The position numbers and the translations under genes were made by a program. From a virus (taxonomy: Duplodnaviria > Caudoviricetes): DNA of 64,000 nt. The notes below the pieces were generated by a model. It did no database searches and was not told where the DNA came from. It worked only from the letters and a program-made list of their open reading frames with translations. Shown here one piece after another: positions 447-30,676 of the stretch (positions are counted from its first letter, which is position 1; each line of letters opens with the position of its first letter). Location of the stretch: the IMG/VR virus record IMGVR_UViG_3300020465_000014, positions 1,450 to 65,449 of that record; one strand, 5' to 3'.

Positions 447-616
447 CGACCCCTTACAGGGCCAACCAAAACTCTGTAATTCCCATTCTTTTTCGATACC
501 CTGACCTTTCGATTAGTCCTTCTAATGACTTGTGCATGACGGTCAGCCAACCTCTTGTCTGCAGTAGTAATACGTAGGAAATATCTCTCGCCGTTTATGG
601 TGAAGACATCTGCCAT
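443..616 (-). CDS. Stand-alone basic SPOR-like tag protein, 57 aa (absent from ORF track)
   Basis: MADVFTINGERYFLRITTADKRLADRHAQVIRRTNRKVRVSKKNGNYRVLVGPVRGR; ATTAAAGG TATA-like box upstream; stop overlaps next ATG. Confidence 0.8.
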   Translation of the reverse strand: MADVFTINGERYFLRITTADKRLADRHAQVIRRTNRKVRVSKKNGNYRVLVGPVRGR

Positions 617-13914: not shown

Positions 13915-16347
13915 TCAACTTCTAATATCGTTTGCCTCAATCCATTCGGTAAATGCTTGAGTCCAGATTTGGTCGTCTCCGCCTATTTGTTCTAATTCAT
14001 CTTTGATGTCTTGACCCTCATTATTCAGATACCTGTTCCACTTGGCGATTGTGATAGGATCTGAAATGCTTACTTGCGGGTATTCTTCAATAAGTAGTCG
14101 TTGACGGGTTGGAGACCAGGTTGCCAGGTTTTCGAAATCACCAGCGAAATATTGCCTCCAATCTGGAAAACTTACTACGTCCAAAGTGGTTATTCTTGCA
14201 GGGTCTTTTGAATCTCCTGAAAATCCTGTTATTTCAACAAAATCATTCTCATTATATTCTGATTCTCCTTCGTCTTCTGGAAATGAATCTGATGCGGTGA
14301 TAATTCCGATTTCACCGCTTGGTAATCTAATATATTTCTCGTAAGCCATATCTCGCTCAAATAGCCTTTGAACGTCTGTTATGTCTAAGCCTCCTTCTAA
14401 TCTTTGTAATGCTAATGCGGCACTTGCACCTTCAACCATTGAGATTCCTATGTTCCTTTGGTCTCTCAATGTCTGCTTGTCTATTTTGTTTACAAAACTC
14501 GGATTATTGTCCAATGGTCTCGAAAGCCCTTTCGAAAGGCTCTTTGGCGGACTAATTATCTCGCTATTCCAATACAAAGGGCTATCCTTTGGCGGAGGCA
14601 TTATTGTTCGAAGAAGGGGATTATCAAGAGTTTCAAAATCAGCACTCTCCATGAAGTTCAAAGGGCCAAATTTCCTTATCATTTCGATTTCTCTTTGAGT
14701 AGGTTCTTCGGGATTTCCGACAATCATAGAATCGAAATCCTCTGAATCCTCAAACAATGATGTCGGTTGGAAAGCATCGATTAGATCCTTTTCAGTTATG
14801 CCTTGTGTTTCTATCATGTCGATTACTTCATCACCGTCTAAACCATATTCGTTAATCAAAGCAAATACGAATGCCTGGTATGCCCTTGCAGTTCTTTCTG
14901 GATTCGTTAGCTCTTTCGGTTCTAACATTGTCCCTAAGTTTTCGTTTTGTAGCGCATCAGAAATGTCGACTCCTATTGCTTCGAGGAATGTCTCGGCATC
15001 AATAGTAATGTCGTCAACGTCTATCAATGAATACAATTTTTCACTTCTTGGTGAAGGGTTTGAAGCCTCCCTGGTTAATCGTTCTGCATCTCGAAGATTT
15101 GCTTTACCAAAATATCCTTTTTCCAACTGCTTCAGTCGCCTTTGGTCTTCTCTGAACTTCTCATCAAATCTCGAAGTGTGCGGATATATTCCAATGTTGA
15201 ATAGGACTTCTGCGGCTTCGGTTCTGGTTAAGAATCCGTAATTCTGAATAGTGCCGTCCATATCGTGAATGAGAAGCATTTTTCTCTCTTTGTTGGCATT
15301 TGTCCTATCAAACCTCTTTGCTCGGTTATCTTCGATTTTTTCCCTGCGATCTGTTAGGTTTCGTTCTTCGAATAAATTAGCATCGGCTTTCAGAGCATCT
15401 TCCCAATCATCAAATATTTTTTTGTCGTAGGTTCTTGGCTCTCCCTTCTTAATTTTGAAGGTGTATTGTCCCTCTAATCCCTTTTCTCCTTTAGTGGCAT
15501 AAACCAATTCATGCCCGTCTCTATTGACGAAAAGTGGTATGTCGTGCCAGGATTCCCAATCCGTAGTCACAAGAGTTATCTCTTCGCCTGGTTCTATCTC
15601 TTTCATTGCTTGCCTTGCCCTTAGAACAGGATAAGGACAATTTAGACCTCTGCAATCAACCATTCGATTGTAAATTACTGGATATTGCCATTGATTCGCA
15701 ATTGTTGGCTCAAGCGGTATTGTTTGCCATTGCCTGTCTCTCAAACTTGGAGTATCTGTCCCCGTCTGGTATAATGAGTCAATAGGAATGCTTCTTGGAT
15801 AAACTTCGGTATAGACATCGGCCTCATCCATAGTGGTATCATTGGGCCTATATCGAGGGAATATTTGGACTCCACCCATTCTTTGAACTTGATTTTCATT
15901 TGGATTCCAATTTATTCTCGGATCTCTTCGCCAATTTAGATTATCTCGCACGTATAGTCCAATCTCGTCTCGCCATTGAACCACCCTTACGTTGCTACCA
16001 TAGGAACGAATCAAATCCGCTAATTGTTTTGTCCTGGCTAATTGATTAACGCTTGGTTTTCCGTCAGCGCCGTTTTGTGCGACTCCGAATAGTTGGTATG
16101 CTTTGTTGTTAAAAAAGCGATATTGGGGTCGTTTGCGTTTAGTTCTGACTCCTGTTACCTCGAAAGTCCGCTTTGTTGGCACTTCTCTTGCCATTTGTGC
16201 TTGCCTAAATAGAACAGTCGCAATTCTCTCGTCAGAATAATTCCTTGATTGTAGCTCTTTCACAAGCGCAGTTATGTTGCGAATGCTTGAACCTGTTGGA
16301 TTTGAAAACTTCTTCCACTCTTCAAGTGTCCTTCGTCTCTTTGGCAT
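13915..16347 (-). CDS. Tagged protein with embedded TusA/SirA-like domain
   Basis: VDCRGLNCPYPVLRARQAMKEIEPGEEITLVTTD...FKIKK (CPxP motif); tag RFFNNKAY...LIRSYGSNVRVVQWRDEIGLYV. Confidence 0.85.
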   Translation of the reverse strand: MPKRRRTLEEWKKFSNPTGSSIRNITALVKELQSRNYSDERIATVLFRQAQMAREVPTKRTFEVTGVRTKRKRPQYRFFNNKAYQLFGVAQNGADGKPSVNQLARTKQLADLIRSYGSNVRVVQWRDEIGLYVRDNLNWRRDPRINWNPNENQVQRMGGVQIFPRYRPNDTTMDEADVYTEVYPRSIPIDSLYQTGTDTPSLRDRQWQTIPLEPTIANQWQYPVIYNRMVDCRGLNCPYPVLRARQAMKEIEPGEEITLVTTDWESWHDIPLFVNRDGHELVYATKGEKGLEGQYTFKIKKGEPRTYDKKIFDDWEDALKADANLFEERNLTDRREKIEDNRAKRFDRTNANKERKMLLIHDMDGTIQNYGFLTRTEAAEVLFNIGIYPHTSRFDEKFREDQRRLKQLEKGYFGKANLRDAERLTREASNPSPRSEKLYSLIDVDDITIDAETFLEAIGVDISDALQNENLGTMLEPKELTNPERTARAYQAFVFALINEYGLDGDEVIDMIETQGITEKDLIDAFQPTSLFEDSEDFDSMIVGNPEEPTQREIEMIRKFGPLNFMESADFETLDNPLLRTIMPPPKDSPLYWNSEIISPPKSLSKGLSRPLDNNPSFVNKIDKQTLRDQRNIGISMVEGASAALALQRLEGGLDITDVQRLFERDMAYEKYIRLPSGEIGIITASDSFPEDEGESEYNENDFVEITGFSGDSKDPARITTLDVVSFPDWRQYFAGDFENLATWSPTRQRLLIEEYPQVSISDPITIAKWNRYLNNEGQDIKDELEQIGGDDQIWTQAFTEWIEANDIRS

Positions 16348-16348
16348 A

Positions 16349-17224
16349 CTATCCCCTCAATTCTCTTTGAGGGAAATAGATGAAGTTTCGATAGCGGCCA
16401 TTCTTCATTCTAACTGACCTGACTCCTAAACCATGCCTCCTACGCAACATTGCCGCCCTCATTCGTGCTGTGTTTCTGTCTAAAGATTCGTAGTTGAAAT
16501 TAACGTAATATTTCCCATCGAAGTTTCTGTATTGGTAGGCATAGCCTCTGCGCCGTCTCTGTGTTGTTCCTTCGGGTCTCATTATTGGCGGGGTTCTTGT
16601 AGCGCCCCCTCTAAACTTCTTCTTCTTCTTCTTTGGATAGATCGGGTCATGTTCATGCTCATGTCCTGGTTGACTCTTCCATTCTTGCTTTGAGTCGAAA
16701 TGAGAATGAACGTGGCTATGCTTTACCCAATCTCCGCCCAAATGCCCTGTTAAATGTCGATTGTATCTTTTTTGTAGGTCTCCTGGTTCAACGGCTACTG
16801 GAGTTTCTGTCCTTTCATCGAACTCTTGTAATTTTGCGGCAGTAATTGCTTCTGTGACGGCTTCTTCAACCAAAATGTCTGTTGATACGTCTTCAGGTTT
16901 GTTTGAAAATGATTCCTTGCGGAGATATACGCCTGGATTGTTGGATTCTCTAATTCTGTTTTGTGCATGAGTCAATTCGTGAACTACCACATCTTCGGTG
17001 ACTCCATCGGCTCTCCTCAATGTATCAGGGTCAAGGTAAACTTCGTTTTCAACAGATTGTCCAGCAATGTCTTCAGGCAATTCTTTGATGTCGATGTTAA
17101 CGTCTGCTTTGTTTAGCTCTTTCAATTCATTCTTCGAGAAATTGTCTTTGATGATTCCTCTAACGATCTTCTTCGATTGTTTGAGTTCCTCTGCACCCAT
17201 TCCTGACTCGTCAGTTATTTTCAT
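16349..17224 (-). CDS. Zincin-like metallopeptidase domain protein with C-terminal tag
   Basis: VVVHELTHA plus downstream EEAVTE; His-rich linker; RNFDGKYY...ARMRAAMLRRRHGLGVRSV. Confidence 0.75.
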   Translation of the reverse strand: MKITDESGMGAEELKQSKKIVRGIIKDNFSKNELKELNKADVNIDIKELPEDIAGQSVENEVYLDPDTLRRADGVTEDVVVHELTHAQNRIRESNNPGVYLRKESFSNKPEDVSTDILVEEAVTEAITAAKLQEFDERTETPVAVEPGDLQKRYNRHLTGHLGGDWVKHSHVHSHFDSKQEWKSQPGHEHEHDPIYPKKKKKKFRGGATRTPPIMRPEGTTQRRRRGYAYQYRNFDGKYYVNFNYESLDRNTARMRAAMLRRRHGLGVRSVRMKNGRYRNFIYFPQRELRG

Positions 17225-19239
17225 ACTGGATAGCCTCCTCCATATTTGTAATTCGCATAACGGCCTCCAGGTTGATACTGCGGGTTAGAATCCATTTCGC
17301 CTACTGGCACATAGACGGGTTTTGGGTCGTTTTTGTCGGACATTGCATCGACTCCCAAAAGCACTCCTCTATTTATTGGAGGATTTATCCAGGCGGCAAT
17401 TTTGTATTCTTCATTTTTTGTTCCTCTTTTGACTATTTGGCTATTTAGTGGTGGCGGTCTATTCTTCTTATTCAACCCCATCCAGGCGTTCTCTTTGTTG
17501 GATGGTTCAGTTGTTGCAGTAATCTTTGGCTTCTTTGTCTTCTTATCACCAGTCACCCTGAGTTGATTAGACAAAGTATTGAAGTAAAGTGTCGGATAGT
17601 TTAGATCCACATAGTAAATGTTGTTTGGATTGTCTTTTGCTTCTTGAAGAGTCATTCCCCTTTCTGATTCCTTTTTGTAGTTGCCTCCAACAAGAGAATA
17701 TCTGCGCCCTAAATCTCCCATTCCTCTCGATTCATTTGTGTTTAGCAATCTATCAGGTTCGAGGATTTCATCACTTCCTCCTCTGAGGAACTTGCGAACT
17801 TGCATACTCGCTGGATGGCCGTCATAAGCTACATCATCATCAGACCAAAAATCGCCTTCGATTCGAAGGATTTTTCCGTCTTTTGAATATCTTGCTTCCT
17901 TCTCCATAAAACCTGAAGCCAATCTATCTCTGATTTCCTCTCTGGTCTCTTTGTTGTTCCTTACAACTTCGCCCGACCTGGAATTATTCTGTATTTCAAT
18001 GGCTCTTGTGATTAACTTGTTTTGGGCTTCCTTGCTTAATTGGTCGAATCGTTTGAGAACTCCTTTAACGTCCCCTCCATAATCATTAACAAGACGATCT
18101 ATCATTGGCCTTTCCTCCCATCTTTCATCTCCTTTACGTGGATTAGCAGAATGCAATGGATTCCTGGGCGTTTCTGGACTAAATGGTGCAACAAAAATCG
18201 AGAACTCTTCGCCAGCAATCACCAATGGCAACATTACATCTCCATTCGTATTTTCAAAAGATGGCTTTGAACTTACTGCAGAGTCAGGTCTGTTTCTCCA
18301 GTTTGCATGATGTCGGTTTCGTCTTTGCCATTCTTCAGAATCGGTATCATCGGCCTGAAGCGTATTGAAGGTAACATATTCTTGAGTTCCAAATACCTTC
18401 AGAGCCTCGTTTAATCGACTTCTTGAAAACAAGGAGTTTCCTATTCGTATCACTTCTGCGTATTTTCCAGTAGTATAGCCAGGATATTTTGGCCCTTCAT
18501 CAGTCCATGTTGTTTCCTTGCTATCTGCGAAATCTCTGCGATCTAAACCAAACTCTCGTTTTGGTGCGATTGCTTTTCTAATGTCTCCAACTTTAGCGAA
18601 TCCGACTTCAAGTGCGCCTGGATAATTTGAACGGATATTCATTACAGCATCGGGCAAATCACCTGTCCTCCATCCAAACATGACTGATGAAATGTCCCTT
18701 ACGTAATCGTCTTTTTTACCTCCTCCTGGTATTGGTTCAGCCCAACCTTTCCAATCCCAATGTCGGCCTTCTGGTTTACCTTCTAATTCGACTCCCATGC
18801 TCATAAATCCAGGAGGGTAATTTTTGCCTTTAGCAAAAACTTCTCGCTTTTGCTCTGCAGTCAGCGCAGGGCGCTTGAGATTTCTGCTGGATAATTTGCG
18901 AAATGCTGGTGGCGTTTTTTTTCCGCTACCTTGCTTCCATATTTCCCTTCGAAGTTTTTGTGGTGCAGAATTGACGGACATTCGCTTTGGCATGGTTTTG
19001 CCTTCGCCTACGAATACAGCATAACCTCCGCCTGTCTTTTGAGAGAATGATACTTTCCTGGCTGGCTCGCCATTTGCTCGATGATATTTCAATAAACGAT
19101 CTGCAACTTTTTCGGTTGTTTTTTCCGCACCGTATCTCAGCATAAGAGGAGATTTACGATACGTTTTGTTTCCAAACTGTCGTTCTTCGACTAATTTGCG
19201 ATAATACAGATTCGCTACAATAGGGATTCTTCGCCTCAT
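17221..19239 (-). CDS. Tagged hypothetical protein (divergent N-terminal tag)
   Basis: RQFGNKTY...HRANGEPARKV...GGGYAVFVG. Confidence 0.8.
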   Translation of the reverse strand: MRRRIPIVANLYYRKLVEERQFGNKTYRKSPLMLRYGAEKTTEKVADRLLKYHRANGEPARKVSFSQKTGGGYAVFVGEGKTMPKRMSVNSAPQKLRREIWKQGSGKKTPPAFRKLSSRNLKRPALTAEQKREVFAKGKNYPPGFMSMGVELEGKPEGRHWDWKGWAEPIPGGGKKDDYVRDISSVMFGWRTGDLPDAVMNIRSNYPGALEVGFAKVGDIRKAIAPKREFGLDRRDFADSKETTWTDEGPKYPGYTTGKYAEVIRIGNSLFSRSRLNEALKVFGTQEYVTFNTLQADDTDSEEWQRRNRHHANWRNRPDSAVSSKPSFENTNGDVMLPLVIAGEEFSIFVAPFSPETPRNPLHSANPRKGDERWEERPMIDRLVNDYGGDVKGVLKRFDQLSKEAQNKLITRAIEIQNNSRSGEVVRNNKETREEIRDRLASGFMEKEARYSKDGKILRIEGDFWSDDDVAYDGHPASMQVRKFLRGGSDEILEPDRLLNTNESRGMGDLGRRYSLVGGNYKKESERGMTLQEAKDNPNNIYYVDLNYPTLYFNTLSNQLRVTGDKKTKKPKITATTEPSNKENAWMGLNKKNRPPPLNSQIVKRGTKNEEYKIAAWINPPINRGVLLGVDAMSDKNDPKPVYVPVGEMDSNPQYQPGGRYANYKYGGGYPV

Positions 19240-19972: not shown

Positions 19973-20421
19973 TAGGGCATCACCACGCAATCATCTATCA
20001 TTATCGGCGCTCTCGTCACGCCGTATGCGGTAGCCCCGCATGATAGCGGGTTGTCTGGAGAATACTCAAAACTTGATTCTCCCAATATTTCGACTTTGTT
20101 TGCATTTATCGGGCCTTTTGATGTCTGAATCGTCATTGGCGGTTGCCGTTCTTGCATTGGCAGGTTGCGATTTGCACTAATCATAAATCGGTTAACGTGG
20201 ATTCTCTTCAGGTTCGCTCTCTTCCTTTGAGCCATTGGGTTCTTCGAGCAAGCCCTGTAAACTGAATATGTGGTTTTGCCGTTTGTCTTACCTTTGATTA
20301 TTTTCGCATTCATTCCAAGCATTCTATGTCGATTGGCAATTTTTTCTGCACGATCTCTGGAAATACCATGTATTCCCAAAGTATGTCTTTTTTTGCCTAT
20401 CATCCGAACTTGTGCTGGCAT
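19972..20421 (-). CDS. Tag fused to a small phage-type domain (IHVN...YSPDxPLSCGA)
   Basis: RMIGKKRH...AEKIANRHRMLGMNAKII...YSVY; C-terminal domain resembles a small uncharacterised phage family I recall. Confidence 0.8.
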   Translation of the reverse strand: MPAQVRMIGKKRHTLGIHGISRDRAEKIANRHRMLGMNAKIIKGKTNGKTTYSVYRACSKNPMAQRKRANLKRIHVNRFMISANRNLPMQERQPPMTIQTSKGPINANKVEILGESSFEYSPDNPLSCGATAYGVTRAPIMIDDCVVMP

Positions 20422-22517
20422 TACAAATCCTCCAAGAATTGTAGCTCTCCTGAAGGTTGTTGGAAAATCTGTCCAACCCTCTTAGCAAGCGTAGGATTTG
20501 GAGTCACGCCATCTGGAGAGGGCGCTCTCCATACCTCGATTGTGAAATCTTCGAACTTCAATTCCTTGCCGCTTTGCATGGCTGGAATCAAAGAATCGTA
20601 AGAAGAATATTTCTCAAAGAGTTCGTCATAACTGACTCCAGGCTGTAGCATATTTTTCGCTTCTCGAAGTGCATTTGCCTTTGACCTTTGATACCAAAGA
20701 GATGTTGTATTTCCGCTTAGATCGGTTAGCCTAAGTTGATATTTTGCACCTTCAGTTGCGTCAAGTTGCGCTTGAGCATCTCCGCCCTGGTTAGCAACTC
20801 TTTCAGCCGCAACAAGTCGCCTGTGATTTTCCGCTTGCTCTGCAACTGAACCATCGATGTCTAAGAACTCGAACTGCTCTCGGTTGCGGTCTCTTCCCGA
20901 TACCCATTGAGGCAACATAAATCTCCTAACATAAGGCAATATATCGTTGGCGTAATTCCTATCTTCAGGTTCTCTTTTCGTTCCGTTAAGGAAGAACTTG
21001 AAATCTCCATCTTCCAATCTTGCATCTCCACCTAAACCTTTGATTTGGAATCCAAGATATGTGCCGCTTGACTTATCCATTTCTGCCAAAACTCCGACTA
21101 CTGCGATACCTGGCGCTGGTTTGTTGTTTTGAGAAAATCCTTCCTCTGAATATATTGGATTTTCAGAAAGATAAATTGCATCATCGTAAGCGGTTAGAAT
21201 TGAATCCCATTTATCCGTAGGGTCGTCAGGGTCATACGGAATAATCGAATGCGCTTGACCTGCAGAATCGAGAACAGCCCATCCTTCTTCGACTTCGGTT
21301 TCAAATCCTTCTGCATCATTTACTGGCCTCCATGTCCAAATCCCTCTTTGGTTTGGTCGAGTTCTTACGGGCGCTGATGCGCCTAAACCACCGCCATAAC
21401 CGTCAGGTGGCGCTAAGATCGTTCCATCTGGTGCGGTTAGCATATCTGAACTAAATGAATCATAGAATGCGCTTCCAATTAAGGAATCACCTTCTGAAAA
21501 ATCAATACTATCAAGCAAATCCTCTAAATCAGTTGGTTGTGCAGTTTTTCCTATTCTTGCTTCTTCTCTAAATCTTTCCTGAGATGAAATGATAATTTCC
21601 TTTGTCTCTTCGGGATTGTCGCCCCAAGTTTCGAATCCTTTTTGCCACATTTCATCGATTTTATCATCGAATATCTCATCATAGGTTTCGTCTTTGCTTT
21701 CTATGTCTCCAAGCAACTCATCTAAGTCAAAATCTAAATCAAAATCAGTTTCAACTTTGATTCTTGCATCCTGGGCGCTTTGTCGGTTCATCTCATTGAA
21801 CTCCTCAATAGAGCCGACTGTTGCCGTTCCTTCCTCGATACGAGCATTGATGAAATCCGACATAGCCTCATTCATTCCCATAAACAGGTCTTCTTGAGAA
21901 TCGATTTTTGCCAATTGTGCTTCTTTTTGTTGTAATTGAAATAGATCTCCGCCCTGAAGTCGCTGAAGGGTTGTTATTGCATCAGCGCCACCGATGTTCG
22001 ACAAGTTTTCTCCAAATGAAAGGTTTGGATTATACCCTTGCTGTTGAGATAACCACGTCTGCAGTTTCAAAGTATCAAGTCCAATTAACGGGTCTTGAAA
22101 ATCTCTCCAGGGTATTCTGATGTAGTTGTATGTTGTTGGTCGTTTGAAAGCACTCCAAAGGGCAGGGTTTTCTGGAGAGAAAACTTGCCTTGCTCGTTGC
22201 CATGCTTGATTGTCTTGAGAAAGTTCGACTGCACTTCTAAATCCAAGAGACCTTGCGTAAGCGTTGAAAAGATTGAGGCGATCCACAAACTTAGGATTTC
22301 TAAATCGTGGCAGACCATAGGAACTCATTGCTGGAGTAGCACCAACGAATAATCCAATGTCTCCATCTGCATATCTTACTGCCCTTGCATTGTAGCCACG
22401 TTGTCTTACATTACGTGCGACTTTGGCAATAGTGGTATTGTATTTTGGAGACAATTCCAAAACCTTTCTAAATTTCTTTCCTCTGAATCTCCTTTCATTA
22501 GCTCTCTTTCTCGGCAT
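20421..22517 (-). CDS. Tagged acidic protein
   Basis: RRFRGKKF...AKVARNVRQRGYNARAVRYADGDIGLFVG. Confidence 0.85.
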   Translation of the reverse strand: MPRKRANERRFRGKKFRKVLELSPKYNTTIAKVARNVRQRGYNARAVRYADGDIGLFVGATPAMSSYGLPRFRNPKFVDRLNLFNAYARSLGFRSAVELSQDNQAWQRARQVFSPENPALWSAFKRPTTYNYIRIPWRDFQDPLIGLDTLKLQTWLSQQQGYNPNLSFGENLSNIGGADAITTLQRLQGGDLFQLQQKEAQLAKIDSQEDLFMGMNEAMSDFINARIEEGTATVGSIEEFNEMNRQSAQDARIKVETDFDLDFDLDELLGDIESKDETYDEIFDDKIDEMWQKGFETWGDNPEETKEIIISSQERFREEARIGKTAQPTDLEDLLDSIDFSEGDSLIGSAFYDSFSSDMLTAPDGTILAPPDGYGGGLGASAPVRTRPNQRGIWTWRPVNDAEGFETEVEEGWAVLDSAGQAHSIIPYDPDDPTDKWDSILTAYDDAIYLSENPIYSEEGFSQNNKPAPGIAVVGVLAEMDKSSGTYLGFQIKGLGGDARLEDGDFKFFLNGTKREPEDRNYANDILPYVRRFMLPQWVSGRDRNREQFEFLDIDGSVAEQAENHRRLVAAERVANQGGDAQAQLDATEGAKYQLRLTDLSGNTTSLWYQRSKANALREAKNMLQPGVSYDELFEKYSSYDSLIPAMQSGKELKFEDFTIEVWRAPSPDGVTPNPTLAKRVGQIFQQPSGELQFLEDL

Positions 22518-22527
22518 TGATTTCCAC

Positions 22528-23625
22528 CTAACCCAAAACGGCTGTGTTAGCCCATATCGACCATGCCAGTAATGATTTAGAAATCAACGATAGCCAAATG
22601 TATATTCTTTCACCAAACAGGTAGTTTGGATAAACGCCTTCTGCATACTGAAGTGCATGGTTGAAAGCGAATGATTGGAAAAGCAAAAATTGTGTTACTA
22701 TGATGAACCAAACAAAGTCAGGAACTTCGGAAAGGTCTGCGCCAATCTGTGAAAGGTTGAGGAAAATTGAGCCATAAACTGCAATCCAGGGGAAAGCACC
22801 AACAATGCAACCCATGATGAAGGGTGTCCAATCCGTCCTATCTCGGTCTGGTGGATTTTGAACTTCAGATAGCCACCCAAATAGAATCATGCCAATATTA
22901 GCACCAGCAACTCCAATCAATGCTGAAAGATTGGTAAGTCCTGAAAGTAGCATGATAATCAAAATCATAATTGTTGATGATAAAGCATACTCGACCCATC
23001 TGAAGATATTTATTCCACGATCTAATTGTCCTTTGTAAACTTCAAACACACCTGGCAATACAGTCAGATAATGGAAAACTGCAGATAACAGGGAGAATGA
23101 TGCAACCCAATATGCGATTATTGCCTCGTAGTTTGATACAATTACTGGAGAGCATTCTCCATTTTCATAGCAACCAGGAGGGCCAGGTGCAAATGTGCTT
23201 AGAACTGTGATTACGAAATCCTGATTCGCCCATAGAATCATTGCCAATCCAGAAAGCAGGTGAACAGTTCCTACCAAAAATGAAAATCTCCGAATAGAAT
23301 CGTAATCCTCCTCCGTCACATCATCTGCAACCTGCGCTCTCCTTGAAGCCACAATCGCCTCTTGATTGTAAATTGAAGAAGATCGCTTGCTGATTCTCGG
23401 TTTAGGCATCTGCGGATTTACCATATCGCTCAAAATCTCTTCTTGCTTTGTTAATCGATTAGGATTCGTTACTACTTGCCATCCCTTCTTCTTCGGCAAT
23501 ACTCTCGCTAATTTTCCTTGATTTCTCATTTTTTCAGCGACTTTTTCAGCACTTTGTTTCGAGGAAAGGTTTGCTTCGTTTACGAAAGGCTGTTTTGAGC
23601 CTCTTACGTCAAATCGCCTTGCCAT
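22528..23625 (-). CDS. heR: Heliorhodopsin with ~110-aa N-terminal extension carrying the basic tag
   Basis: 7 TM; HeR motifs NIFRWVEYALSS, MILFG, GERIYIWLSLISKSLLAW (Schiff-base Lys). Confidence 0.92.
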   Translation of the reverse strand: MARRFDVRGSKQPFVNEANLSSKQSAEKVAEKMRNQGKLARVLPKKKGWQVVTNPNRLTKQEEILSDMVNPQMPKPRISKRSSSIYNQEAIVASRRAQVADDVTEEDYDSIRRFSFLVGTVHLLSGLAMILWANQDFVITVLSTFAPGPPGCYENGECSPVIVSNYEAIIAYWVASFSLLSAVFHYLTVLPGVFEVYKGQLDRGINIFRWVEYALSSTIMILIIMLLSGLTNLSALIGVAGANIGMILFGWLSEVQNPPDRDRTDWTPFIMGCIVGAFPWIAVYGSIFLNLSQIGADLSEVPDFVWFIIVTQFLLFQSFAFNHALQYAEGVYPNYLFGERIYIWLSLISKSLLAWSIWANTAVLG

Positions 23626-23675
23626 GTCTCCACCTCCCTAAATGGCATAATAACGGCTTTGGCGTAAGTTGGTTT

Positions 23676-23687
23676 AGATGCACACTT
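23676..23687 (-). promoter_or_regulatory. Upstream box AGATGCACACTT (exact), 51 bp before heliorhodopsin ATG
   Basis: Exact intergenic 12-mer; TTATTATG TATA-like element between box and start. Confidence 0.75.
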
Positions 23688-23698
23688 TATCAGCGTAG

Positions 23699-25663
23699 TC
23701 AATCGTCCCCAAGTATGCTTTTCCAGGCTCTCCTTATTTCACCAACTTTTTCTGTTCCGCCATCCCACGAACTGCCTCCTATTGGTTTGGCAAGTATTGC
23801 GGCAGGTAAGTTGGAGAAATCACTTTTCTTGTCGATGAAGTCCTCAATTGCATTAGCGGACATTCTTCCTTGATTATCTGAATACTTGTAATCTTTAGCC
23901 AACTGCTTGTCCCATTTTTTGTTTAGAGCTACCGAATCGTTGTCGAGCATATATTTATCCTCCCAACCATGAATCCAATCGGGCATATCTTTGTCGAAGG
24001 CGAACCTCTGATAATTCCAAAGCCGTTTATCGTATGGTATTTTTCCAAAATTGCTTCCATAACCCTGATACGAAGGAACGGCTGTCTGAAGACCTACGTT
24101 CCGCTTGATGTCTTTCGTATCTTTGTTGGGATCTAAATGCAAATTGCCGTTTTCATCAGGGACAAACTTCGAGCCATCTGGAGGGTATGCTTCTTTTCGA
24201 GCAACCCATTCAACGAATGCCATATTTCCTGTTTCTGTATCTGACTTTCCAGGGTCTCCTTCTACGCCAAAATATCGCTTGTTGAAATCTGTCCTCATTC
24301 TCTTTGCAGATGGAGAAAAGTCATTCCATATCGCTAATTGTAATGCAAAATCGACTTGTGAAATGTTCCACATCTTGCCTCCATAGAAAAGTGCTACGTT
24401 ATTTTGGTCTCCATCGTCTTCATCATAATCAGTTCCGTCTTGCCAACCAAGCGGTGTTCCTTCTTTATCGAAGAATACTTGATGGTCTCCTATGGCATAA
24501 AGTGCATCTGGATTTTGTGTCGACAATTTGTGGGCTTCTTTCATTGTCTGCCATAATCGATAATGCCAGGAGTCGTTAGGTAGGAATCCTCCCCGTTCTT
24601 CACCAAGAGATGCAGACATACGAAGAATCCATCTTCTTACAGGCAACTGTTCCCAGTAATCATTAGTGTATTCTTTTCCTATTCCTAAAGCATGGGATTC
24701 TGATTCGGTAGTTGATACTCCGTAAATGATGGCGGGATAACTCAAGTGTTCCGCCCAAGCGTCTTCTGAAATTGGCGCATCCTCTAAGAGATTGTAATAA
24801 CCGCCTCTCGGATCTTCATTGTTGCCTGTAATGTTGTAGTGGTCTTCTAAAGAACCGCCGCCAATTGTGTAATCAGAAGCGCCATAATCGCCATACTTCT
24901 TAATCAGAAAGTGCTTAATCGGGGTCAATGGTCGAATAAAATATTCTGGACTTTTTTCTGCACCTTCAGTAAAAATCGCTGAATCAAAGTTAATCTCATT
25001 TTCCAAAAGTGCCTCTGAAGTGTCCTCATTTAATTCTCTATCCAGAAATTCAGAACCCATCATTCCTGATGATTCTAAGCGTTCCATTGGTCGGTTTTCA
25101 CCGCCTCGAAATAAAGTAAAAATTGAACCGCTACCCGCAACATTTGGCGGTGTGCTTTCAATTGGCAGATTGCCCCATGTTCCACGTCTTACGAATATAT
25201 TTTCTCCAAGAAGTGTATTTACTCCGCTATTCCTCCACGCTGTTTTCGATTCGACTTTGCCTGGCCCACGTCTTCGAATATTCACATCAAGTCCTTTCCT
25301 TCGGCCTTTTTGTCTCTCTGTAACCATCCTATTTTTCCTATCCATAGTCATAGATTTGGGGACTTTAGGCGCATCACCGCCATATTCTGATTCCCATTGC
25401 ATATCCCACCATTCGCTGAAATCTTTAGGATCGTCTGAAGGAGGAAGCATATCTGAGTTGTAGCTCTTTCGTGAATATATCCCCATCTCTCCATTAGCCC
25501 ATTTTACGGTTCTTACATTGATGCCTTTACGTCTTGCAGTAGCAATCGCCTTCGCTAAAGCCAGCCTTCTTTTGTAGGGCATATTCGAAACCTGCATAAC
25601 ACTCGCTTTCTGGTAAGGTTTTTTGTTGAACCTTCTAATTAGTGGTCGTCTTTTTCGATTGAT
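23699..25663 (-). CDS. Tagged acidic protein, probable ATC start
   Basis: In-frame INRKRRPLIRRFNKKPYQKASV upstream of the track ATG matches the N-terminus of the adjacent paralog; ATC follows GGGGTGA SD. Confidence 0.75.
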   Translation of the reverse strand: MNRKRRPLIRRFNKKPYQKASVMQVSNMPYKRRLALAKAIATARRKGINVRTVKWANGEMGIYSRKSYNSDMLPPSDDPKDFSEWWDMQWESEYGGDAPKVPKSMTMDRKNRMVTERQKGRRKGLDVNIRRRGPGKVESKTAWRNSGVNTLLGENIFVRRGTWGNLPIESTPPNVAGSGSIFTLFRGGENRPMERLESSGMMGSEFLDRELNEDTSEALLENEINFDSAIFTEGAEKSPEYFIRPLTPIKHFLIKKYGDYGASDYTIGGGSLEDHYNITGNNEDPRGGYYNLLEDAPISEDAWAEHLSYPAIIYGVSTTESESHALGIGKEYTNDYWEQLPVRRWILRMSASLGEERGGFLPNDSWHYRLWQTMKEAHKLSTQNPDALYAIGDHQVFFDKEGTPLGWQDGTDYDEDDGDQNNVALFYGGKMWNISQVDFALQLAIWNDFSPSAKRMRTDFNKRYFGVEGDPGKSDTETGNMAFVEWVARKEAYPPDGSKFVPDENGNLHLDPNKDTKDIKRNVGLQTAVPSYQGYGSNFGKIPYDKRLWNYQRFAFDKDMPDWIHGWEDKYMLDNDSVALNKKWDKQLAKDYKYSDNQGRMSANAIEDFIDKKSDFSNLPAAILAKPIGGSSWDGGTEKVGEIRRAWKSILGDD

Positions 25664-25667
25664 TCAA

Positions 25668-27482
25668 TCACCCCCTCATTTGCCATTTTCGCCTTTCGAT
25701 TTCTAATGATATGTCCTCATCGGGGACATCATCCCAATTAACCCAACTTCCTCTCAAGAATCCCTTGATTGAGTCGCCGTCTCTGTCGAGCATATTCTCG
25801 AATCGTTCTTTTGCTTCTGCAGGGGTTTCAATAGATCCATCCATTCTGTATCTTCGCCCTGCCTCTGTGAAATTGATTCCACGTTCTGTAAGTTCTTCAA
25901 CTACTTCACTTTGCCATATTCCATGATAGCCAGGATTCCATTCATCTTCTAATTCAACTTCTGTTAACAGATGAGGCGAGCCGCCATAGACCTCAAGCCA
26001 ATTTGCGATTCCTGATTCTCCCCATTCTGTAATTGCGAAATTAAATTGATTAGCGAAGTTAGGGTCGTCATAATCTCCTGGGTCTTTTTCTCTCAACTTA
26101 ACTCCTCTGAACCACAATTGAGCCAGCCCGTCTTTCCATTCCCTTCTATCGCCCCAACCTCTATCTTCAGCGATTTGATTTGTAAGTTGGTCTGCAAAAT
26201 TAGTTCCGTATTTTTCGAGATAACTTCCGTCTGCTTCTATTTCGTCTCTCTCGACCCATTCTCCATCGATGTAATATCCATCGTCTCCATCAAACTCAAG
26301 TTCATTATCTGGAGTAATTCTGATTCCCTCAAAATCACCACGTCTTCCAGAGAAAACGGCGGTATCGATAGCGACAACGGTTATCTCGTTGTCCCTGTAT
26401 AGTGAAAGGCGCTCTGCTTCTTCTTCTATGTCTGCATCATTTGCATTCAAGCGTTCTCTTCCCTGGCCTTGCTTTGCTACGTCTATGGCGTATGGTGCTT
26501 TAGCCGCAATTGCATTTAGGAAAGCTACTTCTCCTGGATATTTGGTTTGTGAGTAATCTGCTTGTCCTGTTGCGAATACATCATCGAGTTCTTTTGTTGC
26601 AGTCAAAAGGGTATCATCCAGCCTGTATGCGGCCTTCATATTCCACGCATCGGGATTATCACTCCAGGGTGAACCTGACGATCTAACAGTAACTACTGGC
26701 AAAGCCACGTATTCAGGAATTGAAAGCATTGTAATCGTATTTGCGTCTGGAAGTTCTGCACCTACAATTCCCTGTTGAGATGGGTTATATCGAGGCGCTT
26801 CTGGTGTTGAAAAGTCCAATCTTTCGAACTCTTCTTCGGTCATTATTAGTTTGGCATTGCCAAGTTGATTCGAAGGATTCATCCCTGTCTCAATTATGTT
26901 CTCTCCAACAGCCCAACGGACTATTTCCTCAAATCCTTTACCTCCAGACCTAAGACCAAATAAGGCTCTTGACTCTGAATCCTTTTCGTTCTTCTTAATT
27001 GCCATATCAACAGAATAATATTCGCTGTCCAAATCAGCCATGAACTCCTCCCAATCAGCCATCATATCTTCATTGTCTATATCGAAATCCATTCCCCCAT
27101 AACCGTAATCTTCCATGAATAATTCTAAGTCCGTCAACTCTCTATCCATTGTGCCGCTTTGAATCATCTCGTTTAGATTTCTGGTTCGAGCAAGTTTTCT
27201 AATTGAGTCAGGTTGCCTTTTCAACGGAGATCCTTTCCGTCTCGGTTTCCTGGTTTCTCTTTTGTTGTAAACAAGGGGCGATTTCCTGGTCGCTTTCCTT
27301 GCATATACGCCAATTTCACCATTAGCCCAACCTACCGTTCTAATATTGATGCCGTTTGCTCTCAATTTCTGAACTCGTTGCGATAAAATACGCCGTTGAT
27401 TGAAATTAAGATTTGGCAAAACTCGAACCTTTGAATACGGTTTCCTGTTAAATTGCCTGATATTTGGCCTTCGTCTCATCAA
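25668..27482 (-). CDS. Tagged acidic protein, paralog of 23699-25663
   Basis: RQFNRKPY...LRANGINIRTVGWANGEIGVYARK versus ARRKGINVRTVKWANGEMGIYSRK. Confidence 0.85.
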   Translation of the reverse strand: MMRRRPNIRQFNRKPYSKVRVLPNLNFNQRRILSQRVQKLRANGINIRTVGWANGEIGVYARKATRKSPLVYNKRETRKPRRKGSPLKRQPDSIRKLARTRNLNEMIQSGTMDRELTDLELFMEDYGYGGMDFDIDNEDMMADWEEFMADLDSEYYSVDMAIKKNEKDSESRALFGLRSGGKGFEEIVRWAVGENIIETGMNPSNQLGNAKLIMTEEEFERLDFSTPEAPRYNPSQQGIVGAELPDANTITMLSIPEYVALPVVTVRSSGSPWSDNPDAWNMKAAYRLDDTLLTATKELDDVFATGQADYSQTKYPGEVAFLNAIAAKAPYAIDVAKQGQGRERLNANDADIEEEAERLSLYRDNEITVVAIDTAVFSGRRGDFEGIRITPDNELEFDGDDGYYIDGEWVERDEIEADGSYLEKYGTNFADQLTNQIAEDRGWGDRREWKDGLAQLWFRGVKLREKDPGDYDDPNFANQFNFAITEWGESGIANWLEVYGGSPHLLTEVELEDEWNPGYHGIWQSEVVEELTERGINFTEAGRRYRMDGSIETPAEAKERFENMLDRDGDSIKGFLRGSWVNWDDVPDEDISLEIERRKWQMRG

Positions 27483-28546
27483 AAGCCCTCCCTGTCTCTG
27501 AGAATCTTCTCGTCTTCATCAGTCCATTGGTCGATAACTCGTCCTCTCTTTCCGCCCCTCATGGGTCTCCTGTCTCTATTACGTTTGATGGATTCGTCAG
27601 TCCTGGATGCTTTCATGTTTGGCGCTCGATTTACCTTTTTGATTTCGAGATCTATTTCATCTGAATGAATTGCGCCTCCTTTGTTATCATAGTAGTAGCC
27701 GATTTCTTCAATTCTATCTGCAAGTTTTTGCCTGAACTCCTTAGCCTCATCCAATGTGCCAAATGCGTATGTTGGTTGATTTTGTTTGGTGGGTAAATTC
27801 TCCATGCCTTCACCAACAAACCGTTCAAAGGCTGGTCGATTCCAATTTATTACAACCCAAAACCTCGCAGGTTTGGAAACTTTAGGAATATTCCCTCCTG
27901 AAGTTATCAGTTCTCCTCCAAAACCAGCAATTCCTGAATCACTTTCACCTGCTATGTTGATGTTGTTAAGATGGCGAACATTCATTGCGACTGCATTTTC
28001 AGGGTGTATCTCTTCTGCAAGAGATGTTCTTTTCGTTTCGAAAGAGCTTGCTGGCAAAGTCGGCAAATCTTTTTCTCCAATTTCGTTAATTCGGTTCAAT
28101 GAGTTTTGAAATCGGCTTTGAGTATTTTGCGCCACGCCTGGTATTGAATCTCCCAAAAAGAAGTAAGCCTGATCGTCTGTGGAATCTCCGAATTGGTAAT
28201 CGCCGTTTCGTAAATTCAGGTTTGCCGACTCTCTTTGGTCTGGAGTTTTTTTGTCCATTGAATCTTGAACCCTTCTCGCAGACATTAAGCCGCTTTCAGA
28301 TATTTTGATGTTGACCGTATCAGTAAATGTGACGTTGTATTTTTTGGGCGAGGCATAAACTCCACTACCTCCTCTCCAACTTACTACCCTGGCATTATAC
28401 CCTCTTTGACGCAGAAGTTCTGCTTGTCTTTCTGCAATTGACTTACTTTCTATTGGGTGTCTCGGCCTACCGTCTCTTGTGTAATTGTATGTCCTGGAGA
28501 CAAGTCGGTATGGGTTTCCATCAAACCTACGGACTAATTTCACCAT
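27479..28546 (-). CDS. Tagged hypothetical protein
   Basis: RRFDGNPY...SKSIAERQAELLRQRGYNARVVSWRGGSGVYASP. Confidence 0.85.
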   Translation of the reverse strand: MVKLVRRFDGNPYRLVSRTYNYTRDGRPRHPIESKSIAERQAELLRQRGYNARVVSWRGGSGVYASPKKYNVTFTDTVNIKISESGLMSARRVQDSMDKKTPDQRESANLNLRNGDYQFGDSTDDQAYFFLGDSIPGVAQNTQSRFQNSLNRINEIGEKDLPTLPASSFETKRTSLAEEIHPENAVAMNVRHLNNINIAGESDSGIAGFGGELITSGGNIPKVSKPARFWVVINWNRPAFERFVGEGMENLPTKQNQPTYAFGTLDEAKEFRQKLADRIEEIGYYYDNKGGAIHSDEIDLEIKKVNRAPNMKASRTDESIKRNRDRRPMRGGKRGRVIDQWTDEDEKILRDREGF

Positions 28547-29673
28547 CAGAAATCACCTTCACGAACCCTTATTTTTGAAACAGGAATAGTATCTCGAATG
28601 CAGAGGGTGTGAGTCGTTTTGTAGCCTGATTCCCAATCTGTATCTGATTCAGGCCAAAGCAAATATCTCGGATCTCTTTGCTTATTCATCTTAGCAAGTG
28701 TTTCCATCCAGGATGAATCCGTTTTCCATAACGGTTCTGACTCTCCTGTTTCGTCATTGTAATATTCATCTTCTAAAACTCCCATGCTCATATCATACAT
28801 CTCGTAATCAGGTTGGAAGTATCTCTTCATTTCTGCGGGACTATCAATCACAACTTCGAGAAAAATATCTTCTGCATAAGCAGATGGATAGGCATTGTCT
28901 GAAGCAATGTCTGCAAAGGTGTCTGGAATGTTCAATTCATCTGTTCCAAATGGAGTAGCAAAACAGCCAGCAGTCATTTTTCCTTCTGCTTGTATATCAA
29001 TCCAATTTTTGAGAGAAGTTCCATGAGTCATTATTATTGGGAATCTGATTTGCTCATAATTCGGCGGCAGTAATCTTTTGGCATGGAGTTCGAGCAATCT
29101 CTTCTCCTCTCCAGTAATGAATGCAACTGGCTTTACGCACATACTGCAGGTTTCTCCAAAGTTCGCATCTGAATCATTGCCACAAATCGGACAAGGCCAG
29201 CAACCATAACTTCTGTCGTCATGGTCTTCTTCTATACCTTCACAACCACAATCTCCGCCTTTTCTGCATACTGCAGGTGGCTTATCTGGTGCTACCAATT
29301 CACCCCATGCCTCCAGAGGGTCTTCTATTTCATCGACATTGAATCCTTTTTCGTATTCGTCAATTGGCCCATCTCCATACCAGGCGAACTTCGGGTCGTC
29401 TGCTTCGGGCATTTCTCCAAAGTCCTTTTCTCGGCCTACTGAATCTGAATACCAATCTCCAGTATTAGCAACGGGCAGATCGCTTGGAAATTTAGTTGCA
29501 TATTTCCTTCGATTGCCAATGTATATCCCATGTCCGCCTGTTTTGGTGTGAATGACCCTGGCGTTGTAGCCCCTTCTTCGTATTGCTTCTGCAACATTTT
29601 GAGCATGGCCTTTGTTTGTAGCTCTCCCTAACCTTCTGAATGAGACATTATCGATTCTTCTAACTGTTCGCAT
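28546..29673 (-). CDS. Tagged protein with Cys-rich Zn module and ADP-ribosyltransferase-like domain
   Basis: RRIDNVSF...AEAIRRRGYNARVIHTKTGGHGIYIG; CPIC/CSMC; THGTS...I...G, LEV, IPxxxI pattern of Tpt1/ART folds. Confidence 0.7.
   Translation of the reverse strand: MRTVRRIDNVSFRRLGRATNKGHAQNVAEAIRRRGYNARVIHTKTGGHGIYIGNRRKYATKFPSDLPVANTGDWYSDSVGREKDFGEMPEADDPKFAWYGDGPIDEYEKGFNVDEIEDPLEAWGELVAPDKPPAVCRKGGDCGCEGIEEDHDDRSYGCWPCPICGNDSDANFGETCSMCVKPVAFITGEEKRLLELHAKRLLPPNYEQIRFPIIMTHGTSLKNWIDIQAEGKMTAGCFATPFGTDELNIPDTFADIASDNAYPSAYAEDIFLEVVIDSPAEMKRYFQPDYEMYDMSMGVLEDEYYNDETGESEPLWKTDSSWMETLAKMNKQRDPRYLLWPESDTDWESGYKTTHTLCIRDTIPVSKIRVREGDF
29516..29580. repeat. 65-bp dispersed repeat (tag-coding), copy 1
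   Basis: 61/65 identical to 61887-61951, including a 33-bp perfect run. Confidence 0.9.
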
Positions 29674-29674
29674 T

Positions 29675-30676
29675 TCACGCCCCTTCCCTTTCCTTTTTCC
29701 TTTTGGCAAGGGCGGCTTGACCTTCTGGACTGTTAATCATTTCATCAAAATCTGCCATAGTGCCTTTTTTCTGCTTCACCCCACTTTTGGCATCGTCTTT
29801 GCGGAATAAGCGGTGGACTTCTTCAGCATATACTGAGTTGGCTGGAGAAAAGAATGCGGGTTTATCATCAACCTCAATCACAAAGAGTCCTTTTGCTTTT
29901 TTGGCCTTCTCGAATGTCCTTCTTCCAGTAAGGATTTCAAACAATTCTTTGGTTTCCTCATATCTTTCTCCTTCTTTTGTCCATTCCGCCTCTCTATTTC
30001 CTCCAGCATGAACTACCCAGGTTTTGAAAGCCGCTTCTCCTTCTTCTAACGTCATTGTTTTGATTAGTGAATCTGATTCTTTAGGATCTAATACTCCAAA
30101 TCCTGTGACTTTGGATTTGGGATTTATTTTCACTTGGGGGAAAACATATCCCATTCCGTTCTTCTCAAAGTATTTCTCTTTGTCTTGCATCATTCTTGAA
30201 AGCCCGATTTGCATTTTTGCTATCGTGGTTTTTGTCTTATCGTTAGGAACGTCCTTTGGTTTTGGTTTTGGCAATCCCAAAATATCAGCAAATGAGAACT
30301 TTGTCTTGAGCCATTCTAAATCATCTGCTGGTTCATCGGGTTTCAAAGGAGGCAATGATGTTTTGATTTTGTTTAGATCGGTTGGGGATTCTATCTTTGG
30401 AATCATTGGAGGAGGAGGCATGGTCTCTTTTGGTTTCCTTCTTGGAGGCAATGGCCGCATTAGTTGTGGCTTTTGGGTGTAAAGTGCTGTCCAACCTGCA
30501 CCATTGACTACTCGAACATTAAATCCAGCATTCCTTAGCATCTTAGCTCTAAATGATGCTTCCTGGTTTCTCTGCTCATAAGTCATTACTCCTTCAGTAG
30601 CACCTTGAGTAAATGCTTCTGTTAAACCATAAGTCAGACCATTAAATCTCCTGGTCGCACCTGGCCCTCTCCCCAT
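29675..30676 (-). CDS. Tagged protein with Pro-rich linker
   Basis: RRFNGLTY...ASFRAKMLRNAGFNVRVVNGAGWTALY. Confidence 0.85.
   Translation of the reverse strand: MGRGPGATRRFNGLTYGLTEAFTQGATEGVMTYEQRNQEASFRAKMLRNAGFNVRVVNGAGWTALYTQKPQLMRPLPPRRKPKETMPPPPMIPKIESPTDLNKIKTSLPPLKPDEPADDLEWLKTKFSFADILGLPKPKPKDVPNDKTKTTIAKMQIGLSRMMQDKEKYFEKNGMGYVFPQVKINPKSKVTGFGVLDPKESDSLIKTMTLEEGEAAFKTWVVHAGGNREAEWTKEGERYEETKELFEILTGRRTFEKAKKAKGLFVIEVDDKPAFFSPANSVYAEEVHRLFRKDDAKSGVKQKKGTMADFDEMINSPEGQAALAKRKKEREGA

Follow-up and report, generated by a model that had tools for sequence, protein, structure and literature searches.

Heliorhodopsins have an inverted topology, with the N-terminus inside, and those of known role act on cellular enzymes or transporters, the role of the family as a whole being still largely open. 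A regulatory role on a cellular partner is described at the start of the abstract of PMC11109279. Bulzu et al. 2021 (bioRxiv 10.1101/2021.02.01.429150) present MORN- and Zn-ribbon-heliorhodopsins as fusions with cytoplasmic N-terminal domains. The fused domain recurs there on further proteins encoded by the genomes concerned, and is taken for a docking or transducer module. Viral heliorhodopsins are known from giant viruses and mirusviruses, among them V2HeR3 of Emiliania huxleyi virus 202, a giant virus of the sunlit ocean (PMC9448325), and PMC7771536 describes tailed phages of Actinomarinales without a heliorhodopsin. The heliorhodopsin examined here is encoded on a 64,000-nucleotide stretch of viral DNA (the window, meaning the whole stretch), which corresponds to bases 1450-65449 of the 65,449-base IMG/VR record IMGVR_UViG_3300020465_000014, and it carries at its N-terminus a small basic module (the tag) that recurs on other proteins of the same virus.

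The heliorhodopsin is a conserved gene of a virus family of approximately 59-73 kilobases (kb), and through a tag that it shares with about 20 other viral proteins it appears to be wired into a common docking network, providing a concrete hypothesis for its partner. It also offers a handle on a virus lineage in which the usual capsid and terminase genes were not recognised among the proteins scanned. Were the protein to reside in the particle, this would be the first virion with a built-in light sensor.

Heliorhodopsin core and N-terminal tag

The gene and its parts were located as follows, with the basis of each assignment in brackets.

22528..23625, minus strand: tagged heliorhodopsin gene (365 amino acids plus TAG stop, ATG start)
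23458..23625, minus strand: tag module, residues 1-56, basic with an isoelectric point (pI) of 11.1, predicted strand-strand-helix-strand-strand (leave-out profile, model, charge)
23296..23457, minus strand: linker, residues 57-110, low-confidence helices with the clade-conserved motifs PNR..K and KPRI (predicted local distance difference test, pLDDT, of 55-69 over blocks 61-100; alignment)
22531..23295, minus strand: heliorhodopsin core, residues 111-365, seven helices (Pfam, PDB alignment, model)
22990..22992, minus strand: codon of E212 in RWVEY, pairing with counterion E107 of 48C12 (codon checked, alignment)
22576..22578, minus strand: codon of K350 in SLISK, pairing with the retinal Schiff-base lysine of 48C12 (codon checked, alignment)

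Judged by its sequence, the protein is a complete heliorhodopsin with counterion and retinal lysine in place. The Pfam family PF18761 (Heliorhodopsin) was matched over residues 111-361 with an E-value of 2.5e-70 and 237 bits (cut-off 26.7), covering profile positions 1-241 of 242, and a genome-level search with the same profile gave 238.2 bits for this protein. A phmmer search against PDB matched six distinct chains, every one of them a heliorhodopsin, with 9ljj_A best (E 5.8e-49) and 48C12 (6su3) close behind (E 6.4e-49). The PDB alignment set RWVEY opposite RWVEY and SLISKSLLAW opposite SLVAKSALAW. Thus the intact motifs of the original prediction were confirmed by Pfam, PDB alignment and codon check. 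E212, K350 and the conserved histidine pair of helices 1 and 2 (H122 and H185, codons confirmed) showed no variation across 106 aligned homologues, and a codon check also placed C152 and C158 in the protein. Pfam shows PF18761 alone in the protein, without MORN repeats or a Zn-ribbon, and residues 1-110 contain no cysteine. The profile of the retinal-forming family PF15461 (BCD) matched in none of three virus records, in a search that had no positive control.

Residues 1-56 read MARRFDVRG...KLARVLPKKKGWQVVTNPN, and similar basic sequence is found at the starts of open reading frames (ORFs) neighbouring the heliorhodopsin. A profile built from the 18 non-heliorhodopsin tags of the window, and so without the heliorhodopsin copy, recognised these residues (E 5.5e-7), bearing out the earlier claim that the N-terminal extension starts with the tag. 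When an iterated profile was run over all ORFs of the window, one tag copy was identified in each of 19 ORFs (E 4.5e-18 to 8.6e-11), and the complete record of 65,449 bases gave 20 matches. Eleven of these 19 copies lie at or near the N-terminus, five are C-terminal, two are internal and one is a free protein of 57 amino acids. All 19 are basic (net charge +4 to +16, pI 10.0-12.0). Regarding the bearers, 15 possess no hydrophobic segment and three possess one, the heliorhodopsin being the only polytopic protein among them. Cytoplasmic enzymes are also represented, the DNA ligase and the GP88-family protein being examples.

A full-length AlphaFold model based on the 106-homologue alignment (mean pLDDT 90.1) comprised a confident small domain at about residues 11-55, a low-confidence region at about residues 61-100 and a confident helical core. 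Within this model the tag reached pLDDT values of 89-97 over residue blocks 11-50, and the tag folded alone (pLDDT 90.6) was predicted as strand-strand-helix-strand-strand, with one helix and four strands. Among tagged heliorhodopsins R34 and L39 of the tag are invariant, with R3, R8, F14, A26, A30 and R41 nearly so.

Distribution and origin of the fusion

Among the best 120 homologues of the protein, twenty clusters (P0002-P0021; 358-381 amino acids, 44-88% identity) all have the N-terminal extension, and the leave-out tag profile matched the window protein and 16 of these 20. P0001 (333 amino acids) was found to be the window's own protein called from an internal methionine, without the first 32 residues. 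The untagged homologues of this set are shorter, covering 52-78% of the query. The original prediction had depended on the extension not being routine in cellular heliorhodopsins, and this agrees with what was found: the leave-out profile matched none of the 99 untagged homologues among the best 120, and the tag was absent from the best 80 of at least 502 cellular heliorhodopsin loci (one genome per species; 494,722 bases), the few longer N-termini there likewise being tagless. A search of 401 genomes from the phylum to which an Acidimicrobiaceae metagenome-assembled genome belongs gave only three tag matches, all marginal and partial (E 3.5e-4 to 8.4e-4) and far below the viral scores.

In a FastTree phylogeny built from 188 heliorhodopsin cores, the 23 rows with a tag formed one side of a branch with a Shimodaira-Hasegawa-like support of 100 (all supports in this tree are local, without bootstrap). 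Their stem measures 0.83, and they are about equidistant from all other heliorhodopsins. Fifteen of the 120 homologues (P0001 and numbers 58, 60, 66, 70, 76, 81, 86, 88, 92, 96, 98, 100, 103 and 110) were dropped from the 106-sequence alignment and the tree as short or of low coverage; also outside the tree are L004, the giant-virus locus (best piece 182 amino acids, limit 200), and L001, whose contig has the same length (63,413 bases) as the longest contig of P0004, which the tree includes. The single tagged clade, its long stem and the invariant tag residues indicate that the fusion arose once, is old and has been kept under selection. On these comparisons the fusion is of single origin, conserved and restricted to the virus family. 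A comparison with Thermoplasmatota and giant-virus heliorhodopsins had been proposed at the outset; the tagged clade was separate from the other cores in the tree, the giant-virus locus was 26% identical and the Thermoplasmatales heliorhodopsin 6IS6 was a weaker PDB match (E 1.4e-33) than 48C12.

With regard to the tag itself, it was identified in 1018 proteins (E<=0.001) among 1.84 billion cluster representatives. Of the best 150 of these, 86 are of free length (at most 100 amino acids), suggesting that the free tag form is common. A Pfam family (E<=0.001) was found in only four of 49 long tagged representatives.

Tag-bearing proteins of the window

The remaining 18 tag copies are listed below, with coordinates from the iterated tag profile over the ORFs of the window.

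446..616, minus strand: free tag-only gene, 57 amino acids
2744..2908, minus strand: tag close to the N-terminal end of a 657-amino acid protein (residues 47-93 of its open frame)
4557..4736, minus strand: C-terminal tag of a 731-amino acid protein
7770..7934, minus strand: C-terminal tag of a 615-amino acid protein
12347..12526, minus strand: N-terminal tag of a 950-amino acid protein (DUF3860 at its C-terminal end)
13452..13619, minus strand: internal tag of a 428-amino acid protein
15937..16131, minus strand: internal tag of an 810-amino acid protein (TusA domain)
16376..16540, minus strand: C-terminal tag of a 291-amino acid protein
18997..19194, minus strand: N-terminal tag of a 672-amino acid protein
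20251..20418, minus strand: N-terminal tag of a 149-amino acid protein
22332..22505, minus strand: N-terminal tag of a 698-amino acid protein, the gene directly after the heliorhodopsin
25460..25648, minus strand: tag of a 632-amino acid protein, first strand upstream of the first canonical start
27288..27470, minus strand: N-terminal tag of a 604-amino acid protein
28340..28543, minus strand: N-terminal tag of a 355-amino acid protein
29506..29673, minus strand: N-terminal tag of a 387-amino acid protein
30464..30664, minus strand: N-terminal tag of a 333-amino acid protein
50738..50911, plus strand: C-terminal tag of a GP88-family protein
61877..62044, minus strand: C-terminal tag of an ATP-dependent DNA ligase

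A relative of the free tag protein, 91% identical and also of 57 amino acids, was found on contigs of 63,937 and 65,499 bases. The tagged protein at 13915-16347 (minus strand) contains a TusA sulfur-carrier domain (E 2.7e-19), and the tagged 950-amino acid protein at 9695-12547 (minus strand) contains DUF3860 (E 3.8e-9), a free copy of which is located at 40046-40327.

In the 632-amino acid protein, the first tag strand (25597-25670, minus strand) is coded ahead of any ATG, GTG or TTG. The open frame begins with ATC at 25663, directly behind GAGGGGGTGA, which overlaps the stop of the preceding gene. The location of this tag strand before the canonical starts suggests either translation from a non-canonical start or a tag that has decayed.

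The tags of the 387-amino acid protein (29506-29673, minus strand) and the DNA ligase (61877-62044, minus strand) were found to be 64% identical, with their last 27 residues equal save for one tyrosine/phenylalanine difference. Other tag pairs, at 14-42% identity to the same reference tag, are well below this, and the closeness of the two suggests a recent exchange of tag DNA between genes.

Virus genome and relatives

The virus record has direct terminal repeats and is rated complete (CheckV 100%); a 77-base repeat was found. A single-protein scan of viral contigs returned no relative, and an alignment-based scan of them returned four heliorhodopsin loci. Three of these are tagged and lie on contigs of 63,413, 69,127 and 66,372 bases (62, 45 and 44% identity, respectively), while the fourth is the giant-virus locus L004, which has no tag and is only 26% identical (tblastn, E 2e-15). 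A giant-virus origin of the heliorhodopsin gene was rejected on the low identity of this sole giant-virus locus. No heliorhodopsin was identified in 50,697 phage records.

Two complete relatives, G001 and G002, have 15 and 22 tag matches, respectively, and share most of their genes with the present record. The tagged heliorhodopsin is thus present in three of three complete records, as well as on the contig of 69,127 bases. In both relatives (G001 61090-62172; G002 2-985) it adjoins a DUF5754-like gene, and here it lies inside the block of tagged genes, between a 12-nucleotide box described below and a homologue of a gene that is itself headed by the box in G001. The heliorhodopsin gene thus seems, from these gene orders, to have moved within the genome. 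Between genomes, most tagged proteins share 24-37% identity, compared with 45-73% for untagged core genes. This is an uncultured, marine virus family of roughly 59-73 kb, as measured on contigs, with prokaryote-style gene organisation.

The most conserved gene of the family (47769-49148, plus strand; 64% identity to both relatives) encodes a P-loop ATPase with the Walker A motif GDRGQGKS in its consensus and comes after a run of conserved membrane-protein genes. It had no sequence match in Pfam, PHROGs or PDB, the best PDB profile match having an E-value of 0.16, and it was found in 21 database clusters only, on contigs of up to 72,912 bases. Its neighbours in the Atlas carry Zot, AAA or FtsK families, which serves as a lead only. 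A second membrane protein of a sensory-protein family is encoded at 45552-45935 (plus strand), namely a shortened TspO/MBR protein of 127 amino acids (Pfam E 7.5e-26). It belongs to a clade of the virus family (121-137 amino acids, 46-100% identity, contigs of up to 67,825 bases), with cellular homologues reaching at most 42% identity. Two giant proteins of 1524 and 1016 amino acids (31016-35590 and 36598-39648, both minus strand) have no Pfam family and are kept in the two relatives at 25-36% identity, and each lies behind an exact copy of the box.

Promoter box and translation signals

Three putative signals were located upstream of the heliorhodopsin gene.

23676..23687, minus strand: 12-nucleotide box AAGTGTGCATCT, with 50 nucleotides between its last base and the ATG (exact-match count)
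23646..23653, minus strand: AT-rich, TATA-like element TTATTATG, 20 nucleotides before the ATG (putative role)
23631..23637, minus strand: Shine-Dalgarno-like GGAGGTG, 5 nucleotides before the ATG (sequence)

The window contains three exact copies of AAGTGTGCATCT (23676, 35643 and 39702), all ahead of genes, namely the heliorhodopsin gene and the two for giant surface proteins, whose ATGs follow after 50-53 nucleotides; approximately 0.008 exact copies would be expected in 128,000 positions. At up to two mismatches, 12 boxes were counted against 6.8 expected, a number reached by nine of 100 shuffles and not significant alone. Boxes with one mismatch occur at the same distance to genes in both relatives; among them are one ahead of the heliorhodopsin in G002 and one in G001 ahead of the counterpart of the gene found directly after the heliorhodopsin in the window. 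The exact box reported in the original prediction was therefore verified, and is kept ahead of genes in two relatives.

The shared arrangement consists of AAGTGTGCAT(C/A)T, an AT-rich element after about 20-25 nucleotides and an ATG after 50-53 nucleotides, in three genomes with only 25-70% protein identity between them. The sites concerned are 23676, 35643 and 39702 in the window, 18842 and 32845 in G001, and 1047, 38895 and 59852 in G002. An AT-rich element was present approximately 20-35 nucleotides before the ATG in nine of nine box cases. By this comparison the arrangement looks like a family-wide promoter architecture, and from its position we infer that the box is a promoter element. 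The spacing of box and AT-rich element would suit an archaeal TATA box with transcription starting at or near the ATG. Shine-Dalgarno-like 4- or 5-mers were counted in the last 22 nucleotides before 40 of 55 genes, in a count made with no control; these, together with the GGAGGTG of the heliorhodopsin, indicate that translation by read-through from a longer transcript is also possible. The next gene begins 10 nucleotides past the heliorhodopsin stop. A sigma-70-type scan of 19800-25800 listed no site in the 23626-23698 spacer, with 15 sites overall against 11.9 expected; this is a weak point.

Contigs of a library labelled metatranscriptomic (X2), from the sample that is also the likely source of the record, match the window without differences over 22493-22839, 22938-23245 and 23454-23626. 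Such a library can contain DNA, and this cover accordingly does not show transcription. Of 12 further sequencing runs, 11 shared only a small fraction of the sequence words (0.05-0.08) and one, X16, next to none; these runs and the uncovered parts were left out of the evidence. The last of these contigs ends one base before the heliorhodopsin ATG, although a contig end proves nothing.

Host

DUF3860, both in the 950-amino acid protein and as the free copy, lies among Atlas clusters with 75-100% archaeal members, most often Thermoplasmatota, and three Atlas neighbour clusters of the P-loop ATPase are likewise archaeal with Thermoplasmatota. Together with the promoter geometry, these point to Thermoplasmatota. 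The nearest cellular heliorhodopsins by sequence, among the matches listed, are those of Actinomycetota, with approximately 45% identity to the best of them, and among the 82 locus rows of the tree 77 were labelled Actinomycetota, two Verrucomicrobiota and three had no phylum label; the higher PDB score of 48C12 compared with the Thermoplasmatales protein points the same way. The Actinomycetota lead is weakened by the long stem of the viral clade and by the cellular genome scan being pattern-based, as it used two fixed peptide patterns (yielding the at least 502 loci). The names of TspO homologues and of cluster members indicated no host. The host is probably a member of Thermoplasmatota, with a modest chance of its belonging to Actinomycetota and a smaller one of its lying elsewhere.

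Orientation and proposed role

Residues 1-112 contain 23 lysines and arginines (net charge +8) and no signal peptide, while the first outer loop contains no lysine or arginine and two cysteines that are invariant within the tagged clade. Taken with the topology known for the family, this charge pattern leads us to expect the tag on the inner side, in the cytoplasm or the particle lumen, as had been predicted. The N-terminal end is thus most likely cytoplasmic or lumenal. That 15 of the 19 bearers are without a hydrophobic segment and one is polytopic fits an intracellular module, with the heliorhodopsin as its one clear membrane anchor.

The explanation we favour is that the tag docks its bearers to DNA or nucleoprotein and that the heliorhodopsin links these to a membrane; it is held tentatively, its chance being put a little short of even, and the orientation, the partner, the location in the particle and any effect of light within it are suppositions. 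The heliorhodopsin would be a retinal-binding, slow-cycling light sensor of the working type, whose inner-facing N-terminus is joined by a flexible linker of about 55 residues to one basic, 55-residue beta-beta-alpha-beta-beta tag. The virus family places this tag on the N- or C-terminal ends of 15-22 unrelated, mostly soluble proteins and also encodes it as the free 57-amino acid protein, and the tag would then be a portable docking domain that gathers its bearers at one common partner in the cell or particle. The likeliest partner would be viral DNA, either naked or covered with the free tag protein, as suggested by the charge of the tag, its free-standing form and its presence on the ligase. 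As the only polytopic bearer, the heliorhodopsin would link core and cargo to a membrane, either at an assembly site or in a membrane-bearing particle, and this link could be modulated by changes that light induces on the inner side of the protein. A complex prediction for the free tag protein with heliorhodopsin residues 1-60 scored 0.08 against a mark of 0.32, which speaks neither for nor against binding.

A bolder form of this explanation has the tagged heliorhodopsin as a particle membrane protein of a new, membrane-bearing, non-tailed lineage of marine Thermoplasmatota viruses, with the inner tag tying the membrane to a core of DNA that the free tag protein coats and with light gating assembly, stability or genome release; this is considered unlikely. 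Several points weigh against docking to a nucleoprotein core and against a place in the particle. No capsid, portal or terminase family was recognised in 38 proteins scanned with Pfam or 20 scanned with PHROGs, and a membrane in the particle is inferred solely from the many membrane-protein genes. Foldseek searches with the tag model returned no match at E<=0.001 in PDB (best 0.32) or among the viral models of BFVD. An exhaustive fold alignment (VIA) gave no telling match, the top Z of 5.6 belonging to a designed mini-protein; the predicted fold is a common small alpha/beta arrangement. A PDB profile search with the tag alignment gave a designed protein as its best match (E 0.0096). The only family touched by the tag sequence in Pfam is SPOR, which was matched by five of the 19 window copies at E<=1 (best 4.6e-4), with 14 unmatched. 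The variable position of the heliorhodopsin in the three genomes fits an accessory gene no less than a structural one, and since known roles concern cellular enzymes or transporters, a host-directed role without a structural one is possible. Of the interpretation in the original prediction, the intact heliorhodopsin, the most likely inner-facing tag, the exact box and the lack of the extension in the cellular loci searched stand; budding, an envelope, nucleoprotein binding and an archaeal host go beyond the evidence.

The heliorhodopsin may instead be an accessory photoreceptor in the host membrane, outside the particle, where the tag recruits viral DNA or tagged enzymes or brings them under light regulation. 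We regard this as possible but doubtful. The gene's change of position between genomes would be explained, as would its possession of its own box and TATA-like element and the conservation of a truncated TspO/MBR gene in the same viruses, and known heliorhodopsin roles are regulatory (as in the opening of the abstract of PMC11109279). Yet its presence in three of three complete genomes, its monophyly and its stem of 0.83 argue for a core gene of long standing over one acquired sporadically, and some 20 tagged proteins would be left unexplained unless all meet at one place, which comes near the DNA-docking explanation favoured above. A tag without nucleic acid binding, serving as an address label for protein-protein contacts by which cargo is brought into a capsid or onto a scaffold while the heliorhodopsin sits in an internal membrane, would account for tags at either end of unrelated, fast-evolving proteins (24-37% against 45-73% identity), for enzymes such as the ligase that would be useful if delivered with the genome, and for a P-loop ATPase with Zot, AAA or FtsK neighbours as the most conserved gene. 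The tag, however, is a folded 55-residue domain with a pI of 10-12, unlike a short peptide that is cleaved off, neither a protease nor a capsid protein emerged from the Pfam and PHROGs scans, and the free form, commonest among the best 150 representatives, better suits an abundant coating protein; this reading is considered improbable.

A true SPOR domain binding the cell wall outside the membrane of a peptidoglycan-bearing bacterial host is very improbable. Apart from the weak matches of five window tags, SPOR was found in two of 49 long tagged proteins at E<=0.001 (best 3.5e-5), and CwlC (Z 4.7, root-mean-square deviation 2.2, 45 residues aligned) and RlpA (Z 4.6, deviation 1.9, 46 residues aligned) appear among the fold matches to the tag model, amid many unrelated rows of like Z; the Actinomycetota affinity of the nearest cellular heliorhodopsins listed would also fit such a host. 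The tag nevertheless sits on the inward end of the heliorhodopsin and on a DNA ligase, carries a charge of +4 to +16 with no signal peptide ahead of it, and is borne by 15 of 19 proteins without a hydrophobic segment. Its model has one helix and four strands compared to the two helix-bearing repeats of SPOR, with Z values in the range of common arrangements. A cell-wall anchor was rejected on the grounds of inner-facing ends, cytoplasmic enzymes and charge, and SPOR is treated as a possible distant relative rather than as the family of the tag. Hardly any weight can be given to the idea that the extension is a product of gene calling or a neutral accident that serves no function. The start of P0001 at an internal methionine would allow it, but 20 further clusters, as distant as 44% in identity, retain the extension and its invariant or near-invariant tag residues, GGAGGTG lies 5 nucleotides before the upstream ATG and the tag folds with high confidence. 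On its conservation, this Shine-Dalgarno-like sequence and the confident fold, an artefact was rejected.

Comparison with known systems

In the literature consulted, no description of a heliorhodopsin in a prokaryotic virus or of the present module was found, although ten N-terminal extension variants are tabulated in Table S8 of Bulzu et al. 2021, and the present extension may be among them, without a name. The window protein resembles 48C12 and the actinobacterial heliorhodopsins (6SU3, 6UH3 and 9LJJ), its residues 105-363 aligning with chain positions 6-254 at an E-value of about 6e-49. Proteins of the 48C12 type, however, comprise 250-290 amino acids without an N-terminal module, whereas the viral clade has its long stem of 0.83 and a clade-invariant cysteine pair in the first outer loop. 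The MORN and Zn-ribbon fusions of Bulzu et al. 2021 involve other domains and have cellular owners (Firmicutes, Thermoplasmatales), the owner here being a virus family. Giant-virus heliorhodopsins are also viral and from the sunlit ocean, but they belong to Nucleocytoviricota of algae and, at the one locus compared, share 26% identity and lack the tag.

SPOR (PF05036; CwlC 1X60, RlpA 6I0N) is a small alpha/beta module of similar size with weak sequence and fold matches to the tag. It acts outside the membrane on peptidoglycan, whereas the present tag is most likely inner-facing and is also borne by cytoplasmic enzymes; its charge is much more basic, and its model contains one helix only. In phage T4, the capsid targeting sequence is a cleavable element shared by internal proteins and removed by the head protease, and in enveloped viruses the inner tails of envelope proteins bind the matrix. 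The likeness of these to the present system would be one of working, as one element is placed on many proteins, or a tail ties a membrane protein to a core. Unlike the T4 targeting peptide, the present tag, known here from sequence, is a predicted folded domain of 55 residues that also exists as a free protein and is also found at C-terminal ends.

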